Made by a program: the position numbers and the translations under genes. Shown here piece after piece: positions 52,735-59,225 of a DNA stretch of 64,000 nt. The first letter of the stretch is position 1. Each line of letters begins with the position of its first letter. The DNA is from Myxococcales bacterium. Lineage in GTDB: Bacteria; Myxococcota_A; UBA9042; JABWCM01; BTVJ01. Location: the NCBI GenBank assembly GCA_045863395.1, contig BTVJ01000025.1, forward strand, positions 31,448-95,447. The letters are read 5' to 3'. The notes beneath the pieces are model-generated. The model made no database searches, had not been told where the DNA came from, and saw only the letters and a list, made by a program, of their open reading frames with translations.

Positions 52735-53193
52735 GTGCACATCGTCCTCGTCGAGCCTGAGATCCCCGGCAACACCGGCAGCATCGCTCGCGTCTGCGCG
52801 GGCACCGACACGACCCTGCACCTGGTCGGGCGCCTGGGGTTCTCCCTGGAGGACCGCTACCTGAAGCGGGCGGGCCTCGACTACTGGCCTTCGGTGAGGC
52901 TCCGGCTGCACGACTCCCTGGACGCGGTGCTCGCGGAGCACGCGGGCTCGGGATGGTGGTTCCTCAGCACGCACGCGACGCGCCTCTACACCGACGTCCG
53001 CTATGGGTCCGACGATCTCCTGGTCTTCGGGTGCGAGACCCGGGGGCTGCCCGAGAGCGTCCGAGAACGCTACGCGGACCGGCTCGTCCGCATCCCGGTC
53101 AACGCCAATATCCGGAGCCTCAACCTGGCGAACGCGGCGAGCATCGTCCTGTTCGAGGCGCTGCGACAGACCGGCTGGACCCCGGCGAGCTGA
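52735..53193 (+). CDS. trmL: tRNA (cytidine/uridine-2'-O)-methyltransferase
   Basis: HIVLVEPEIPGNTGSIAR, RAGLDYW, FGCETRGLP and RSLNLAN. Confidence 0.93.
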   Translation: MHIVLVEPEIPGNTGSIARVCAGTDTTLHLVGRLGFSLEDRYLKRAGLDYWPSVRLRLHDSLDAVLAEHAGSGWWFLSTHATRLYTDVRYGSDDLLVFGCETRGLPESVRERYADRLVRIPVNANIRSLNLANAASIVLFEALRQTGWTPAS

Positions 53194-53194
53194 C

Positions 53195-54406
53195 GTGACC
53201 ACCCCCGACCCCGCCGCCGTCGACTTCGCCCTCAAGCTGGCTCGGGCGCTCCACGTCCATGGGGCCCCGGCACACCGCCTGGAGGAGGCGATGACCCTCG
53301 TCACCGGGCAGCTCGGCATGGAGGGGCAGTTCTTCTCTACGCCGACGTCCCTCCTCGCGGGGTTCGGCCCCCTGGGCGAGCAGCGCACCTACCTGCTGCG
53401 GGTCGATCCCGGGGGCGTGGACCTGGAGAAGCAGGCGCTGCTCCACGACGTGGTGACCGAGTTCTCGGCGCGACGGATCGACCCCGACGAGGCATCGGCA
53501 CGCATCGACGCCATCGAGGCGGCAGAGCCGCGGTACGGCGCCATGACCGAGATCCTGTGCGCCGGGCTGGCCTCGGGCTGCGCCGCCGTGTTCTTCGGGG
53601 GCGGGGTCGCCGAGGTGTCCGTAGGCGCCGGCATCGGGCTCATGGTCGGGCTCATTCGGATCGTCGCGACGCGATGGCGGTCGCTGGGACCAATCCACGA
53701 GGGGGTCGGGGCGCTGCTGGCCGCTCTCCTTGCTGCGCTCGCCGACCACGTGGCCGGCCCCGTCTCGGTGCCCGTCAGCGTCCTCGCGGGCCTCGTGATG
53801 TTGCTGCCGGGGCTGACCCTGACGACGGCCATGACCGAGCTGGCGACCCGCAACCTGGCCTCGGGCACCGCGCGCCTCGCCTCCGCCACGGTGACGTTCC
53901 TGATGCTGGGCTTCGGCGTGGCGCTCGGTACACGCCTCGCGGAGCTGGTGGCGGGAGTCGGGGTCGCGCTGGAGCCGGACGCGCTGCCAAGCTGGGCCTC
54001 GCCCGTGGCCCTGGGGCTCGCGCCCTTGGTGTTCGCCGTGCTGTTCCGCGTGCTCCCGCGGGACATCCCCTGGGTGCTCTGCGGCGGATTCCTGGCGTTC
54101 TACACCGCACGAGGCGGGAGCGCGCTGTTGGGCGCAGAGCTGGGTCTCTTTCTGGCGACGCTCACGCTGGGCCTTGCCGCAAATGTGTGGTCTCGCGCCC
54201 TGGAGCGCCCCTCGGCCGTGGGGGTGGTCCCAGGGATGATCCTGCTGGTTCCAGGGAGCGTCGGCTACCGGAGCCTGACGTCGCTCATGCAGGATGACGT
54301 CGTCGGGGGCGTCCAGACCGCGTTCACCGTGTCCCAGATGGCGGTCGCGCTGGCGGCGGGGCTGCTCGTGGCCAACGCCCTGGTCGCGCCCCGCCGCGCC
54401 TTGTGA
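53195..54406 (+). CDS. ThrE-family threonine/serine exporter
   Basis: GAPAHRLEEAM, LLPGLTLTTAMTELATRNLASGTARL and PGMILLVPGSVGYR; about 10 TM helices. Confidence 0.88.
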   Translation: MTTPDPAAVDFALKLARALHVHGAPAHRLEEAMTLVTGQLGMEGQFFSTPTSLLAGFGPLGEQRTYLLRVDPGGVDLEKQALLHDVVTEFSARRIDPDEASARIDAIEAAEPRYGAMTEILCAGLASGCAAVFFGGGVAEVSVGAGIGLMVGLIRIVATRWRSLGPIHEGVGALLAALLAALADHVAGPVSVPVSVLAGLVMLLPGLTLTTAMTELATRNLASGTARLASATVTFLMLGFGVALGTRLAELVAGVGVALEPDALPSWASPVALGLAPLVFAVLFRVLPRDIPWVLCGGFLAFYTARGGSALLGAELGLFLATLTLGLAANVWSRALERPSAVGVVPGMILLVPGSVGYRSLTSLMQDDVVGGVQTAFTVSQMAVALAAGLLVANALVAPRRAL

Positions 54407-54488: not shown

Positions 54489-55856
54489 ATGCTCGAAGGG
54501 ATTCGCACCATACACCTCATCGGGATCGGGGGCATCGGCGTCAGCGCCGTGGCGCGCGTGCTGAACCAGCGGGGCTTCGCCGTTCGCGGGTCGGACGTCC
54601 GCGAGTCGTCCATCACGCTGGCGCTGCGCGAGGAGGGGGTGGACGTGCGCATCGGCCACGCAGCCTCCCACCTGGACGGCGTGGATCTCGTGGTCCGCTC
54701 CACGGCCATCCCGGCGACAAACCCGGAGCTGGTCGCCGCCGCCGAGCGGAGAGTGCGTGTCGTGCACCGCTCCGAGGTGCTCGGAGAGCTGCTGGTCGGC
54801 AGGGAGTCGGTAGGGGTGATCGGGACCCACGGCAAGGGAACGGTCAGCGCCATGATCGCGTGGGTGCTCGAGGCGGCCGGTCGCGCCCCGGGCTTCGTCA
54901 TCGGCGCCATCCCCCACAACTTCGGCGTCAACGCGCGAGACGGCAGCGGCCCGATCATCGCCGAGGTCGACGAGAGCGACGGGTCCCTGGTCAACGTGCA
55001 CCCTCGCTGGGCGGTCCTGAACAACCTGGAGCTCGACCACCTCAACTACTACCCGGACTGGGAGACCCTCTCGTCGACCGTGCGGCGCTTCTACCTGGAG
55101 AACCACGAGCTGCGAGCGTCCATCGTCAACGTGGACGACGAGGGGGTGCGCAGGCTGCTCCCGCTCCTCGATGGCGTCGAGCCCGTGACCGCTGGCCTGC
55201 GCCCTGAGGCGCGCTACCGCGGGACGGACGCCCGGACCGAGGGCATGGTCGGCCGCGTCGCCGTGTCCCTGGACGGGGCGCCGGTCGGGGAGCTCACCCT
55301 GCGCGTGCCTGGGCTCTACAATGTGCACAACGCGCTGACAGCAGCCGCCACCTGCCACGCCATGGGCGTGCCGTTCGAGGACGTGGAGCGCGGGCTGGCC
55401 AGCTTCGAGGGGCTGGAGAACCGGTTCACCCTCGTGTCGGCGGGGGGGGTACAGGTCGTCAAGGACTACATCTCCCATCCCACCGGCATCAAGCGGGTGC
55501 TGGAGGCGGCGCGGGAGATCGCGCAAGGGCGCATCACGGCGGTGTTCAAGCCCTACCGCTTCACGATGATCCACTATCTGCAGGACCAGTACCGGGAGTG
55601 CTTCCGGGAGGCGGATCGCCTGGTCATCACGGAGCTCTACACCGCAGGGGAGGTCCCCATCCCGGGCGTCGACGCCCCGTGGCTGTGCGACAAGGTGCGA
55701 GAGTCGGGAGCGGACGTGACGTTCGTGCCGGCCATGGAGGACATCGTCCCCTGGCTGCGGGCGCACGTCGGCTCGGGGGAGCAGGTGATCTTCTTTGGCG
55801 GCGATGACCTGTTCCGGCTCGCCGACGCGTATGTGGACCAGCTTCGCGCCCCCTGA
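54489..55856 (+). CDS. MurC-like Mur ligase with non-canonical substrate motifs
   Basis: HLIGIGGIGVSAVA, GTHGKGT, EVDESDGS, LDHL and GLYNVHNA. DYISHPT replaces DYAHHPT, and KPYRFTM replaces QPHRxxR. Confidence 0.85.
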   Translation: MLEGIRTIHLIGIGGIGVSAVARVLNQRGFAVRGSDVRESSITLALREEGVDVRIGHAASHLDGVDLVVRSTAIPATNPELVAAAERRVRVVHRSEVLGELLVGRESVGVIGTHGKGTVSAMIAWVLEAAGRAPGFVIGAIPHNFGVNARDGSGPIIAEVDESDGSLVNVHPRWAVLNNLELDHLNYYPDWETLSSTVRRFYLENHELRASIVNVDDEGVRRLLPLLDGVEPVTAGLRPEARYRGTDARTEGMVGRVAVSLDGAPVGELTLRVPGLYNVHNALTAAATCHAMGVPFEDVERGLASFEGLENRFTLVSAGGVQVVKDYISHPTGIKRVLEAAREIAQGRITAVFKPYRFTMIHYLQDQYRECFREADRLVITELYTAGEVPIPGVDAPWLCDKVRESGADVTFVPAMEDIVPWLRAHVGSGEQVIFFGGDDLFRLADAYVDQLRAP

Positions 55857-55880
55857 GCGTGGGCGAGCGGGAGGAGCACG

Positions 55881-56045
55881 ATGGATCCGTTGATGGTGGT
55901 GTGCCCCGAGTGTGGCGAGGACGTAGAGCTCCCCGAGGACGTCGAGGAGGGCGAGATCGTCGAGTGCGACAACTGTGGCGCCGAGCTGGACGTGACGAGC
56001 CTGGATCCGCCCGAGGTCATGCTGTTCGAGGAAGACGAGAAGTGA
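55881..56045 (+). CDS. LysW-like acidic zinc-ribbon protein, 54 aa, not in the ORF track
   Basis: GGAGGAG RBS then ATG. Translation MDPLMVVCPECGEDVELPEDVEEGEIVECDNCGAELDVTSLDPPEVMLFEEDEK*, with CPECG..GEIVECxxCGAEL.V..LDP as in LysW. The stop overlaps the next GTG. Confidence 0.85.
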   Translation: MDPLMVVCPECGEDVELPEDVEEGEIVECDNCGAELDVTSLDPPEVMLFEEDEK

Positions 56046-56905
56046 GCAGTCAACGCGAGGCGGTGTCCGCGATGCTCAGCGACCTCGTGGACCTGTGGCG
56101 GGCGCGTCATGGGACGCCCGTGGCGCGCTTCGACGTGACGGCCGATGGACGCCACGTGTCCGGTGCGGTGCTGACCCGCGCCCAGGCTGGGGAGATCGCG
56201 ATGCGGCTCCCCGACGACGTGTCGCTCAACCTCCAGATCCTCGAAGATCGGTCGGAGGTGCCCCCTCTCGGCTGGATGAGGCCCGTGGGGGCCCTGGCCC
56301 CGCTCTACCGAGGAGCGGATCTCGGGCGCTTGACCACCGAGGTCCTGGGGACCGACGGCGCGGTCCGGGCCCTGGAACGGGAGGGAGGCGCGGTCCTCGT
56401 CCAGGCAGATGACGACACCCTCGGGTGGGCGTTGGCCACCGACCTGACGGTGGCGGATGCAGGGAAGACGGAGGTCCTGGTCGACGGAGAGAGGATCCCT
56501 GCCCAAACCGACACCATCGTGCGGTTGTGGGACGCGGCGCGGCCGTTCGTGGAGGCTCGCACCCCGTACGTGCTCGGCGGGCGGTCAGATGGTCGGGCGG
56601 ACTGCTCGGGGCTCGTGTCGCTCGTGTTTCGCCGCGCCACCGGGGCCATCCTCCCGCGGCACTCCATGGATCAGCGTCGCCTCGGCGAGCGGGCCTCGCG
56701 GGCGGAGGCGCGCCCGGGGGACCTGATCTTCGCGCGGCTCGGTGACACGAACATCCCCCACGTGGGCTTGCTGCTCCCAGGGGACCGGGGGCTCGACATC
56801 GTCCACGCCTCCCAGCGCGCGGGTCACGCCGTGCGCCAGCCTGAGGCCGAGTTCCTGGAGGGCTATCGCTTCATGGCGGTGCGCCGGGTGCTTGGCGATG
56901 TCTGA
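56042..56905 (+). CDS. NlpC/P60 (C40) cysteine peptidase without a signal peptide
   Basis: PYVLGG..DCSGLV..LPRHS..PGDLIF..HVGL..IVHAS. GTG start in a GTGA overlap with the LysW-like stop; the ORF-track start at 55859 is probably over-extended. Confidence 0.88.
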   Translation: MSSQREAVSAMLSDLVDLWRARHGTPVARFDVTADGRHVSGAVLTRAQAGEIAMRLPDDVSLNLQILEDRSEVPPLGWMRPVGALAPLYRGADLGRLTTEVLGTDGAVRALEREGGAVLVQADDDTLGWALATDLTVADAGKTEVLVDGERIPAQTDTIVRLWDAARPFVEARTPYVLGGRSDGRADCSGLVSLVFRRATGAILPRHSMDQRRLGERASRAEARPGDLIFARLGDTNIPHVGLLLPGDRGLDIVHASQRAGHAVRQPEAEFLEGYRFMAVRRVLGDV

Positions 56906-58367
56906 GGCCCGTACGTTCGGGGAGTTCGCGGCCTCGCTCCGCGGAGCAAGGATCCACGTGGCGGGCCTTGCCGGCACGGAGTGCAGCGCCTTCCTGCGGG
57001 CCCTGTCTCGCCACGGCGTGACCGGCGCCATCGTCCACGATCTGTCTCCCGACCGGGAGGCTCTGGCGCGCACGTTCTCCACGACCCACGTCGCCCTCCC
57101 CCCCGACGAGCGGGAGGCGCTGCTCGTCCAGCTCTTGGCCGAGGTGGAGGACCTGCGGCTCGGCGACCGCTATCTGGAGGGCATCGAGGAGGCGGACGTC
57201 CTGTTCGTCAGCCAGGCGTGGGACCTCTACCCCCGGAATGCGCCCGTCGCCGCGTTCCTGGCCTCCTCGCCGGAGCGCGTCCTGACGTTGATGGACCTGA
57301 TGCTCCGGTTCCTGCCCTGCCCGGTCATCGGGGTCACGGGGACCAACGGCAAGACGACGACCGCGTCCATGCTCGTGGCCTTGCTGGAGGCAGCAGAGGT
57401 CGCGGTGGCCACGGGCGGGAATCACCGCTATCACGACCAGCTCCTACCCGGCATCGACGCGATCTCGAAGGACGCGGTGGCGGTGCTGGAGGTCTCGCAC
57501 AAGCACCTGGCCAGGCTGGCGCGAGGGCCGGCCGTCGCCGTGGTCACCAACGTGACGGGGGACCACCTGGACCAGCTCCCGCGGCACGAGTACGAGGCGC
57601 GAAAGGCGCGGCTGGTCGAAGTGCAGCACCCCGGGGACCTCTCCGTACTCTGCGCCGACGATCCGGTGTGCAGGAGGCTGGCCGCGCAGGCGCCTGGCCG
57701 CGTGGCGCTGTTCTCGGTTCACGGGGACCCTGCGCCGGAGGCCGACGCAGCCTGGTTGCGCGGCGCAAACCTGGTGGTGCGTGTCGGGGGCGACCAGGTG
57801 GTGGTCCCCCGCGCCGCAGTCCAGCAGCCGGGCCTTCACAGCGTGGCCAACGCGCTGGGGGCCATGCTGGCCGTGTCGCCCTGGGTCAGGGACGCCCGGA
57901 CACTGGGGCGGGGGCTGCGTGCGTTCCGCGGAGTGCGGCACCGGCTCGAGTACCTTCGGCGCATCGGCGGGATCCCGGTCTGGGATGACTCTGCCTCCAC
58001 ATCGCCGGCTGCCACCCTCGCAGCCGTGGAGGCGCTGGTCGAGGAGGGAGCGGCGCAGGTGGTCCTGGTCGCCGGCGGAGACGACAAGGGCAACGACTGG
58101 TCTGCGGTGGCGCGTGTTGGTGGGCGGGTCCGGGCGCTGGCGTTGCTCCCCGGGACGGCCGCGGATCGTCTGGCAGAGACCCTCCCCAACGTTCCGGCGA
58201 CGCGCCATGTGAATCTGAGGGAGGCCCTGGATGCGGCGCTCCTTGCGGCCCAGCCTGGTGACGCGCTGCTGGTGTCCCCCGCAGGAGCGGGCTTCTTCGC
58301 GCGCTTCGCCGAGGGGGACGGGGATGCCCCCGGTCTGCGCGCCATGATCCGGCGCTGGGGGCGCTGA
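56898..58367 (+). CDS. MurD-like Mur ligase, divergent
   Basis: IGVTGTNGKTTT, TNVTGDHLD, FRGVRHRLE, GGDDKG and LVSPAG. EVSHKHL and DDSASTS differ from the canonical ELSSFQL and NDSKATN. Confidence 0.82.
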   Translation: MSEARTFGEFAASLRGARIHVAGLAGTECSAFLRALSRHGVTGAIVHDLSPDREALARTFSTTHVALPPDEREALLVQLLAEVEDLRLGDRYLEGIEEADVLFVSQAWDLYPRNAPVAAFLASSPERVLTLMDLMLRFLPCPVIGVTGTNGKTTTASMLVALLEAAEVAVATGGNHRYHDQLLPGIDAISKDAVAVLEVSHKHLARLARGPAVAVVTNVTGDHLDQLPRHEYEARKARLVEVQHPGDLSVLCADDPVCRRLAAQAPGRVALFSVHGDPAPEADAAWLRGANLVVRVGGDQVVVPRAAVQQPGLHSVANALGAMLAVSPWVRDARTLGRGLRAFRGVRHRLEYLRRIGGIPVWDDSASTSPAATLAAVEALVEEGAAQVVLVAGGDDKGNDWSAVARVGGRVRALALLPGTAADRLAETLPNVPATRHVNLREALDAALLAAQPGDALLVSPAGAGFFARFAEGDGDAPGLRAMIRRWGR

Positions 58368-59225
58368 GTGCTATCCGTCACCACCTGCGATGGGTGGGTC
58401 CTCGCCGGGGAGGTCTGCGAAGCTGTGGGAGCGCCCGTGGCGCGGGCCGTCGGCGTCCACGCGATGATGTGTGATCGTCGCACGCTGGACCGACCGCGGG
58501 GCGCTGGTCTTGCGTCCGCGCTGGCGCGCGCCGGCGTGGAGGTACATCTCTACGACCTGCGGGGCCATGGTCAGAGCACGGGGGGCGACCCGCGGGTCGT
58601 CACCTACGACGACCTCGTGCTCCAGGACATCCCTGCCCTGCTCCGAGCGACGGCCGCTTTGGAGCCCCGGCTCCCACTCGTCCTGGTCGGGCACAGTCTG
58701 GGGGCCCACGCGGGCCTGGCTGCCGTGGGGAGCGACCGAGGTCTCGCGGTGGCGGGCGTCGTCAGCCTCGGCGGCAACATCTGGATGCGCCGCACGGAGC
58801 CGGACGCCCGGCGCTGGGCGGTCAAGCGGCTCTCCATGGAGCTGTGGGGTGCCATCGCGTGGTTCGGCGGGCGGTTCCCGACCCGCGCCCTCCGCATGGG
58901 CACTGACGACGAGGCGCTCCCCTACGTGAGACAGCTCGTGGGGTTCTCACGCACGGGGCGCTGGAGCGGCGCGCGCGACTGGGACGGGGCGCTGGCGAGG
59001 GTCACCTGCCCCGTGCTCAGCGTGACCAGCCGGGACGACCGCTGGATGTGCCGCCCGGTGTCGGCGGCACGGTGGCTGGAGGCGCTACCCCAGACCGAGC
59101 ACCGGATCGTCGGCGACCGCCCTGGTGATCCGCGCGGCGTGGGCCACATGGGGCTCGCCACGGACCCTCGCATGGCGTCAATCCATCGCGAGATCTCCGG
59201 CTGGGTGCGGTCGGTAGCCCGGTAG
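58368..59225 (+). CDS. Alpha/beta hydrolase
   Basis: DLRGHGQS, GHSLG nucleophile elbow, DD and GHM triad residues. Starts immediately after the MurD-like stop. Confidence 0.85.
   Translation: MLSVTTCDGWVLAGEVCEAVGAPVARAVGVHAMMCDRRTLDRPRGAGLASALARAGVEVHLYDLRGHGQSTGGDPRVVTYDDLVLQDIPALLRATAALEPRLPLVLVGHSLGAHAGLAAVGSDRGLAVAGVVSLGGNIWMRRTEPDARRWAVKRLSMELWGAIAWFGGRFPTRALRMGTDDEALPYVRQLVGFSRTGRWSGARDWDGALARVTCPVLSVTSRDDRWMCRPVSAARWLEALPQTEHRIVGDRPGDPRGVGHMGLATDPRMASIHREISGWVRSVAR

Follow-up and report, generated by a model that had tools for sequence, protein, structure and literature searches.

The operon and its genomic setting

The subject of this study is an operon in a 64,000-nucleotide stretch of DNA (the window) from contig BTVJ01000025.1 of a Myxococcales bacterium (GCA_045863395.1). 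It encodes a MurC, a LysW-like zinc-ribbon protein (the carrier), an NlpC/P60 peptidase, a divergent MurD and a hydrolase, and on the reading that we tentatively favour part of it builds D-Glu into peptidoglycan. The five genes are as follows.

54489..55856, + strand: murC (TIGR01082, 376 bits, cut-off 335; three domains)
55881..56045, + strand: LysW-like zinc-ribbon carrier of 54 amino acids (Zn_ribbon_LysW PF21344, 58.6 bits, above cut-off; TIGR01206, 44.7 bits, below the cut-off of 53.2)
56042..56905, + strand: NlpC/P60 cysteine peptidase (NLPC_P60 PF00877, 62 bits)
56898..58367, + strand: divergent MurD (TIGR01087, 203 bits, cut-off 212; N-terminal domain unmatched)
58368..59225, + strand: alpha/beta hydrolase (Hydrolase_4 PF12146, 62.6 bits)

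The junctions between the open reading frames were 24, -4 (GTGA), -8 and 0 nt, in agreement with the initial annotation of the window, and the GC content at third codon positions was 0.87–0.92 for every one of the five.

The genome (G000) is that of an uncultured myxobacterium-like organism, 8.77 Mb in size and 97.4% complete. Nine matches to the Mur middle domain were found in it, two of which were the MurC and the divergent MurD of the operon. The other Mur-type matches were read, by motifs that we take to be diagnostic, as MurE, MurF, an Mpl-like ligase, a cyanophycin synthetase pair, a CapB-like enzyme and FolC. The MurC of the window was the only TIGR01082 match above cut-off in the genome and the divergent MurD was its best TIGR01087 match, the runner-up scoring 94 bits. 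The division and cell wall (dcw) cluster is on a separate contig (C35) in the order ftsI-murE-murF-mraY-ftsW-murG-murB-ftsQ-ftsA-ftsZ. Its murD slot was empty, mraY and ftsW being 3 nt apart, and so was its murC slot, as murG runs directly into murB. The MurE and MurF of this cluster look ordinary, and murA was also found in the genome. No ddl gene is present between murB and ftsQ of the cluster (L004:5825-7788, C35); ddl was not searched for elsewhere.

The initial annotation had correctly placed the operon outside the dcw cluster, but a side pathway, with canonical murC and murD elsewhere, did not survive the genome search, in which the operon copies were the only murC and murD. The pathway that they serve is thus housekeeping peptidoglycan synthesis, and a separate secondary-metabolite pathway was rejected on the same ground. 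One outcome that the annotation had named as speaking against itself was that these genes were the only copies and acted canonically without involvement of the small protein. Its first half was found.

Sources of D-Glu were also searched for. No match to murI was found in the G000 genome search. MurL (NF041275) matched none of five genomes, nor did it match any control genome. Class IV aminotransferases scoring below the Dat cut-off were present in 5/5 genomes tested, and the best one of G000 reads as IlvE. Among the Mur-type loci read from sequence are a cyanophycin synthetase accompanied by a second Mur-type subunit (C22:84915-89371) and a CapB/PgsB-like poly-gamma-glutamate synthase (C6:103312-104586). 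The latter may likewise need D-Glu, in a genome without a murI match.

A carrier that ends in lysine

The carrier, which is single-copy in the genome, has the C-terminus EEDEK, so that its last residue is Lys54 rather than Glu. C8, C11, C29, C32, Pro43, Glu53 and Lys54 were invariant in an alignment of 30 rows chosen for their Lys end. Among the 150 representatives listed (of 770 matches), the terminus consisted of three acidic residues and Lys in 33 and of EDWGE in 17. All clusters retrieved from the ESM Atlas belonged to the LysW family, and in a scan of viral contigs the carrier had 2 matches, both weak and partial.

In the available text of PMC10433800, LysW bears its substrate on the terminal Glu of EDWGE. 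As the carrier of this study ends in Lys, LysW-type loading on a C-terminal Glu, which the initial annotation had described for LysW, is impossible. Its remark that lysX is missing from the window holds for the whole genome, in which no LysX (TIGR02144) scored above cut-off (best 41.6 vs 275.6 bits); lysZ, lysY, lysJ and lysK were not searched for. With neither a terminal Glu nor LysX, the LysW lysine pathway was rejected.

The conserved unit

The unit that is conserved across genomes consists of the carrier, the NlpC/P60 peptidase, the divergent MurD, a ThrC-like pyridoxal 5'-phosphate (PLP) enzyme and an ATP-grasp ligase. In G000 the last two are encoded side by side on another contig, so the gene set of the initial annotation was two core genes short.

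C1:178510-179568: fold-II PLP enzyme, ThrC-like, beside the ligase gene
C1:179565-180905: ATP-grasp ligase, beside the PLP gene

A scan of 585 metagenome stretches, made with one search pattern that favours a Lys tail, identified at least 47 carrier loci, and it is on this one scan that the breadth outside the phylum rests. Among the loci listed, all 11 with a Lys-ended carrier had at least one of the genes for NlpC/P60, divergent MurD, PLP enzyme and ligase, and five had all four. Such partners were found at 0/7 loci with EDWGE-type carriers and at 0/29 loci with other zinc ribbons (0/36). One locus (L121), a low-GC metagenome fragment that gives the impression of being from the Candidate Phyla Radiation (CPR), contained only the ligase, PLP and carrier genes.

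The distribution of the module was further assessed across the phylum, in a set of 401 genomes. Of 14 matches to the carrier profile, 10 were Lys-ended. The other four were removed, those of G392, G332 and G209 as unrelated zinc ribbons and that of G372 as EDWGE-type; a match in G031 (6e-4, inside a 756-amino-acid frame) was likewise rejected as another zinc ribbon. The ligase profile, to whose alignment four of the ten module genomes had supplied rows, had 31 matches. The same 10 carrier genomes scored at E <= 2e-81, and the next match was at 1.5e-38. The PLP gene abuts the ligase gene in 9/10 loci, the tenth being cut by a contig end. Full-length divergent MurDs above 500 bits were found in 13/401 genomes, which were the 10 module genomes and G209, G332 and G372; the next score was 343. 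Finally, murI was matched in 308/401 genomes, of which only one, with a weak match, was among the 10 module genomes (G213), vs 307 of the 391 others.

MurC is not part of this unit. The motifs GTHGKG[TS], SHPTG and FKPYRFT[ML] were found in 121/121 rows of its clade (MurC and the 120 homologues listed), which is one of Myxococcota/Bradymonadia. In the same 121 rows SHP and KPYRFT[ML] stand in place of the canonical L-Ala-site motif HHP...QPHRxxR. If these residues have the roles in the amino-acid site that we assume for them, the altered motif may indicate that the stem begins with another residue. Eighty of 164 MurC loci were examined, whose record titles were mostly those of Myxococcota, Bradymonadales and Deltaproteobacteria metagenome-assembled genomes. 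A murD-like gene directly follows murC in 72 of the 80, without a carrier, forming a murC-murD pair outside the dcw cluster, and no dcw gene was near murC in any of them; six loci, mostly on short contigs, had no murD-like match. Carrier and NlpC/P60 genes were near this MurC clade in only 2/80 loci, and the carrier was fused to the C-terminus of MurC, with its Lys tail free, in 2/120 homologues listed. Moreover, the module is present in family f24 while an ordinary-type murC resides in the dcw cluster. MurC, which the initial annotation had counted as a core gene with the carrier, is a housekeeping neighbour that is linked only locally.

Similarly, no homologue of the hydrolase was found at 80 MurC loci or 14 module loci. 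The hydrolase gene is translationally adjacent but does not belong to the conserved module, and it was rejected as the release enzyme because of this lack of conserved linkage. The proposed linkage of the core genes across genomes is thus borne out for the carrier, NlpC/P60 and MurD-like genes (11/11 vs 0/36 loci) and fails for murC and the hydrolase gene. Upstream of the operon, a gene for a ThrE-family threonine/serine exporter (53186-54406 of the window) lies on the same strand, 82 nt before murC. In the nearest relative's locus a SpoU methylase gene is directly before murC, and the ThrE gene is absent at that position.

The divergent MurD

The AlphaFold model of the divergent MurD had a pLDDT (predicted local distance difference test) of 93.3, and its top Foldseek matches were MurD structures. 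It retains the MurD fold, the ATP/Mg residues and the equivalents of His183 and Asp317. In an unrooted FastTree, 19 rows of ordinary MurD were separated from 19 rows of divergent MurD with a support of 0.98. The divergent MurD was the sole MurD of G000 and of 12/12 further genomes with this protein that were tested, and 12/12 hand-picked control genomes (11 distinct) had a full-length ordinary MurD of 332–399 bits.

In E. coli MurD, D-Glu is bound at its alpha-carboxylate by Thr321 and Lys348 and at its gamma-carboxylate by Ser415 and Phe422 (PMC9780078, available text). The equivalents of Thr321 and Lys348 were kept in 14/14 locus-derived divergent MurDs. In the sequence alignment, Ser415 was lost with a 2-residue deletion in all 14 and kept in 19/19 ordinary MurDs. 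The retained alpha-contacts and the loss of the gamma-Ser fit, we infer, an acceptor D-Glu that already has an amide at its gamma-carboxyl. Lys319, mutation of which relaxes MurD specificity according to the available text of PMC8788868, was lost in 19/19 divergent and 2/19 ordinary rows, and an invariant Arg177 was gained in the divergent MurDs. The signature Glu182/Arg348 of MurD2, which uses L-Glu (same source, available text), was found in no row; the 14 locus-derived proteins have Asp or Asn and Lys at these positions. A subgroup of three database rows (P0299, P0301 and P0305) keeps the Ser415 loop and has its P-loop changed to GKFT; one cluster among them is named Candidatus Segetimicrobium.

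The NlpC/P60 peptidase, the PLP enzyme and the ATP-grasp ligase

The peptidase has an N-terminal SH3b-like region, SH3_16 having scored in two relatives, and no evident signal peptide, and it matches 2HBW over residues 68-257. Its triad of C188, H240 and H255 was invariant in 11/11 rows, and the Asp, Ser and Arg residues that form the D-Glu S1 site of YkfC-type enzymes were kept. The position of YkfC Asp256, mapped by motif, was His or Asn in 11/11 rows. As this Asp holds the free amine of Ala in YkfC (PMC2954226, available text), its replacement leaves the peptidase without a pocket for a free N-terminal Ala and thus not restricted to free muropeptides; it could take an N-blocked substrate. 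The peptidase is fused to the divergent MurD in P0296. Downstream of the carrier in L131, L142 and L123 there is a D-glutamate-cyclase-like domain, which in the complete L131 gene is fused to NlpC/P60. Contig C2 of G000 has a D-glutamate-cyclase-like gene that stands alone (L196:6024-6971) and shares 32% identity with the fused domain of L131.

The PLP enzyme scored 81 bits against the threonine synthase family, whose cut-off is 421, and the Asn/Arg stretch of ThrC, which we take to bind phosphate, is replaced in it. Its PLP Lys (K67) and an SSGNA motif were invariant in 9/9 rows; the motif also occurs in non-racemases. A Ser at the second-base position presumably favours racemisation, a point for which a literature search gave no paper. 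The model of the ATP-grasp ligase (pLDDT 89) resembles PurT, PurD and biotin carboxylase, with template modelling scores of 0.63 or lower, and LysX and RimK were not among the fold matches listed. By sequence, its nearest peptide ligases were the glutamyl ligase BesA and PGM1, both weakly matched. A search of plasmids with the ligase returned only distant genes labelled 'biotin carboxylase' (26 records).

A possible mechanism and its alternatives

The divergent MurD as sole MurD, the co-occurrence of carrier, ligase and divergent MurD, the scarcity of murI and the 11/11 vs 0/36 linkage, together with the loss of the gamma-Ser, the replaced Asp256, the cyclase-like fusions and the BesA/PGM1 matches of the ligase, lead us to favour, at somewhat less than an even chance, a carrier-tethered, racemase-free addition of D-Glu at stem position 2, which would replace MurI and the ordinary MurD step. 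D-Glu would be attached by an isopeptide bond to the terminal Lys of the carrier both when it is made and when it is ligated, so that no free pool of D-Glu is needed; this, too, we put forward tentatively. With similar reserve, the tethered route can be suggested to extend across several Myxococcota lineages and, by the fragmentary locus L121, to CPR bacteria.

From the gene content, linkage, co-occurrence, replacement of the ordinary murD and residue changes, all observed directly, we infer the following catalytic steps. MurC would form UDP-N-acetylmuramoyl-L-Ala (UDP-MurNAc-L-Ala) as usual, an activity established for its family. The ATP-grasp ligase would activate the gamma-carboxyl of L-Glu and couple it as an amide to the epsilon-amine of Lys54 at the end of the carrier. 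The fold-II PLP enzyme might then invert the free alpha-carbon to give gamma-D-Glu-carrier, which is the weakest step. The divergent MurD, as its remodelled gamma-carboxylate site suggests, would join UDP-MurNAc-L-Ala to the tethered D-Glu. Finally, NlpC/P60, the proposed release enzyme, would free the product by cutting the gamma-D-Glu-Lys bond. Carrier-tethered Mur-ligase chemistry, as first suggested for both ligases, is the best reading for MurD and is not upheld for MurC, and of the two release enzymes considered with it the linked NlpC/P60 remains a candidate and the unconserved hydrolase does not.

Several observations weigh against such a route. G209, G332 and G372, which are 90–95% complete, have a divergent MurD with the same loop and NlpC/P60, and neither a Lys-ended carrier nor the module ligase or PLP enzyme was found in them; the divergent MurD therefore cannot always need a carrier. 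In these genomes (loci L182 of G209, L185 of G372 and L186 of G332) the genes for a NagZ-like protein, NlpC/P60, divergent MurD and a nucleoside-triphosphate (NTP)-transferase-like protein form one run, and G372 also carries a gene of the Asp/Glu racemase family. The run may be a reduced form, possibly for salvage only, or the divergent MurD may also accept free D-Glu. In the database rows P0299, P0301 and P0305 Ser415 is kept and Lys348 is lost. The Fisher p of 1e-5 for murI against the module overstates the association, as the ten module genomes come from only about four lineages. A missing murI is also common, since 93/401 genomes had no murI match and 81 of them had no divergent MurD, and G213 has the module plus a racemase-like gene (8.6e-36). 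Whole families lacking both a murI match and the module (for instance f29, 0/11, and f25, 0/2) make further D-Glu routes likely in the phylum, and the class IV aminotransferases could supply D-Glu. Neither the PLP gene nor the ligase gene of G000 is linked to the operon. The PLP enzyme most resembles threonine synthases, and the racemase activity suggested for it is an argument from motifs. The BesA match spans only about 45 positions of the ligase.

The three carrier-less genomes also bear on an alternative in which the carrier would only supply D-Glu, the ligase and the PLP enzyme forming gamma-D-Glu on it and NlpC/P60 setting D-Glu free for a MurD that has drifted but is conventional. The joint loss of carrier, PLP enzyme and ligase from genomes that keep divergent MurD and NlpC/P60 would be expected from it, and the retained equivalents of Thr321, Lys348, His183 and Asp317 and the anti-correlation of murI with the module fit it as well. 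Yet free D-Glu would need no more than an ordinary MurD, and the divergent MurD was present in 10/10 module genomes (401 sampled), with the gamma-carboxylate Ser gone in 14/14 and an invariant Arg177 gained, which makes simple supply unlikely, though a serious contender. A different residue at position 2, or a modified stem, would result if the PLP enzyme carried out beta/gamma-elimination or replacement on the carrier, giving a non-standard peptidoglycan. The threonine-synthase-like character of this enzyme, whose family performs such reactions, the loss of Lys319 with its reported effect on specificity (PMC8788868, available text) and the likewise altered amino-acid site of the MurC clade all agree with that. 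Against these stand the ordinary MurE and MurF of the dcw cluster and the D-glutamate-cyclase-like fusions, which point to D-Glu, as well as the replaced Asn/Arg stretch of ThrC, if it binds phosphate as presumed, and on balance a non-standard stem appears improbable.

About equally improbable is a salvage of muropeptides from prey or from the cell itself, in which NlpC/P60 would trim them, the divergent MurD would re-ligate D-Glu or a gamma-D-Glu-diamino-acid dipeptide, and the carrier would be a buffer or accessory. In one family, 10 loci have a NagZ-like gene ahead of the module, an NTP-transferase-like gene follows the divergent murD in the three carrier-less genomes, and a gamma-substituted acceptor would equally fit the lost Ser415. 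However, the YkfC Asp256 is missing from NlpC/P60 in 11/11 rows, the NagZ-like gene of G000 is about 56 kb from the operon, and the PLP enzyme and the ligase, which co-occur with the carrier in 10/10 genomes, would have no part in salvage. The form proposed in the initial annotation, in which both Mur ligases would extend the C-terminal carboxyl of the carrier into a separate short peptide freed by the peptidase or the hydrolase, is very improbable. It could draw on the tight translational coupling of the operon and on the MurC-carrier fusions (2/120 homologues listed), but the Lys tail stays free in such a fusion, which may reflect no more than the adjacency of the genes. Furthermore, the operon holds the only MurC and MurD of a 97.4% complete genome whose dcw cluster lacks both, 2/80 loci of this MurC clade have the carrier nearby, one module family keeps murC in its dcw cluster, and the hydrolase is not conserved.

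Comparison with known systems

No description of a system joining a LysW-like carrier to a Mur ligase, peptidoglycan or D-Glu was found in the literature search, most subscription journals and supplements lying outside its coverage. Stem position 2 is almost universally occupied by D-Glu, and the sources described for it in the available text of PMC8788868 are MurI, D-amino-acid transaminases and MurD2/MurL. If true, the carrier-bound route would be another source and would account for wall synthesis in some bacteria without murI. The LysW fold would then have a chemistry that is reversed and anchored on lysine, and a Mur ligase would be acting on a substrate tethered to a protein. The proteins of the module are all small and soluble. 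To what is known, this study adds a sole, divergent MurD with an empty dcw slot, the co-occurrence of the module in 10/401 genomes, the loss of the gamma-carboxylate site, the missing YkfC Asp and the three carrier-less counter-examples.

Similar to LysW/ArgW of Thermus, Sulfolobus, Thermococcus and haloarchaea, the module combines an acidic four-Cys zinc-ribbon mini-protein with an ATP-grasp ligase, a PLP enzyme and a peptidase. Different from them, its carrier ends in Lys, whereas theirs end in the Glu of EDWGE (PMC10433800, available text), its ligase is PurT/PurD/biotin carboxylase-like with no LysX above cut-off in the genome, and its partners are cell-wall enzymes. The polarity of the linkage is probably reversed in comparison with LysW, the amine coming from the carrier and the carboxyl from the substrate. 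MurD2/MurL of Xanthomonas and rare actinobacteria likewise pairs a divergent MurD with accessory genes in a murI-less genome (PMC8788868, available text). However, the module lacks Glu182/Arg348, and MurD2/MurL has neither carrier nor PLP enzyme. With canonical MurI and MurD the system shares the MurD fold, the ATP-site residues and the slot in the pathway; it differs in the absence of a murI match in G000, an N-terminal insert and an altered Gly motif of its MurD, the lost Lys319, the remodelled Ser415 loop and the invariant Arg177.

The peptidase resembles YkfC, dipeptidyl-peptidase VI and AvPCP in its layout of SH3b-like region and NlpC/P60 domain, its Cys-His-His triad and its Asp/Ser/Arg site for D-Glu, but the Asp256 that defines their subfamily is His or Asn in 11/11 rows. 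Finally, in butirosin biosynthesis (BtrI/BtrJ/BtrK) an ATP-grasp ligase also loads gamma-L-Glu onto a carrier and a PLP enzyme works on the tethered amino acid. There, however, the carrier is an acyl carrier protein with a thioester linkage, the PLP reaction is a decarboxylation, and the pathway belongs to secondary metabolism and includes neither a Mur ligase nor an NlpC/P60 peptidase.

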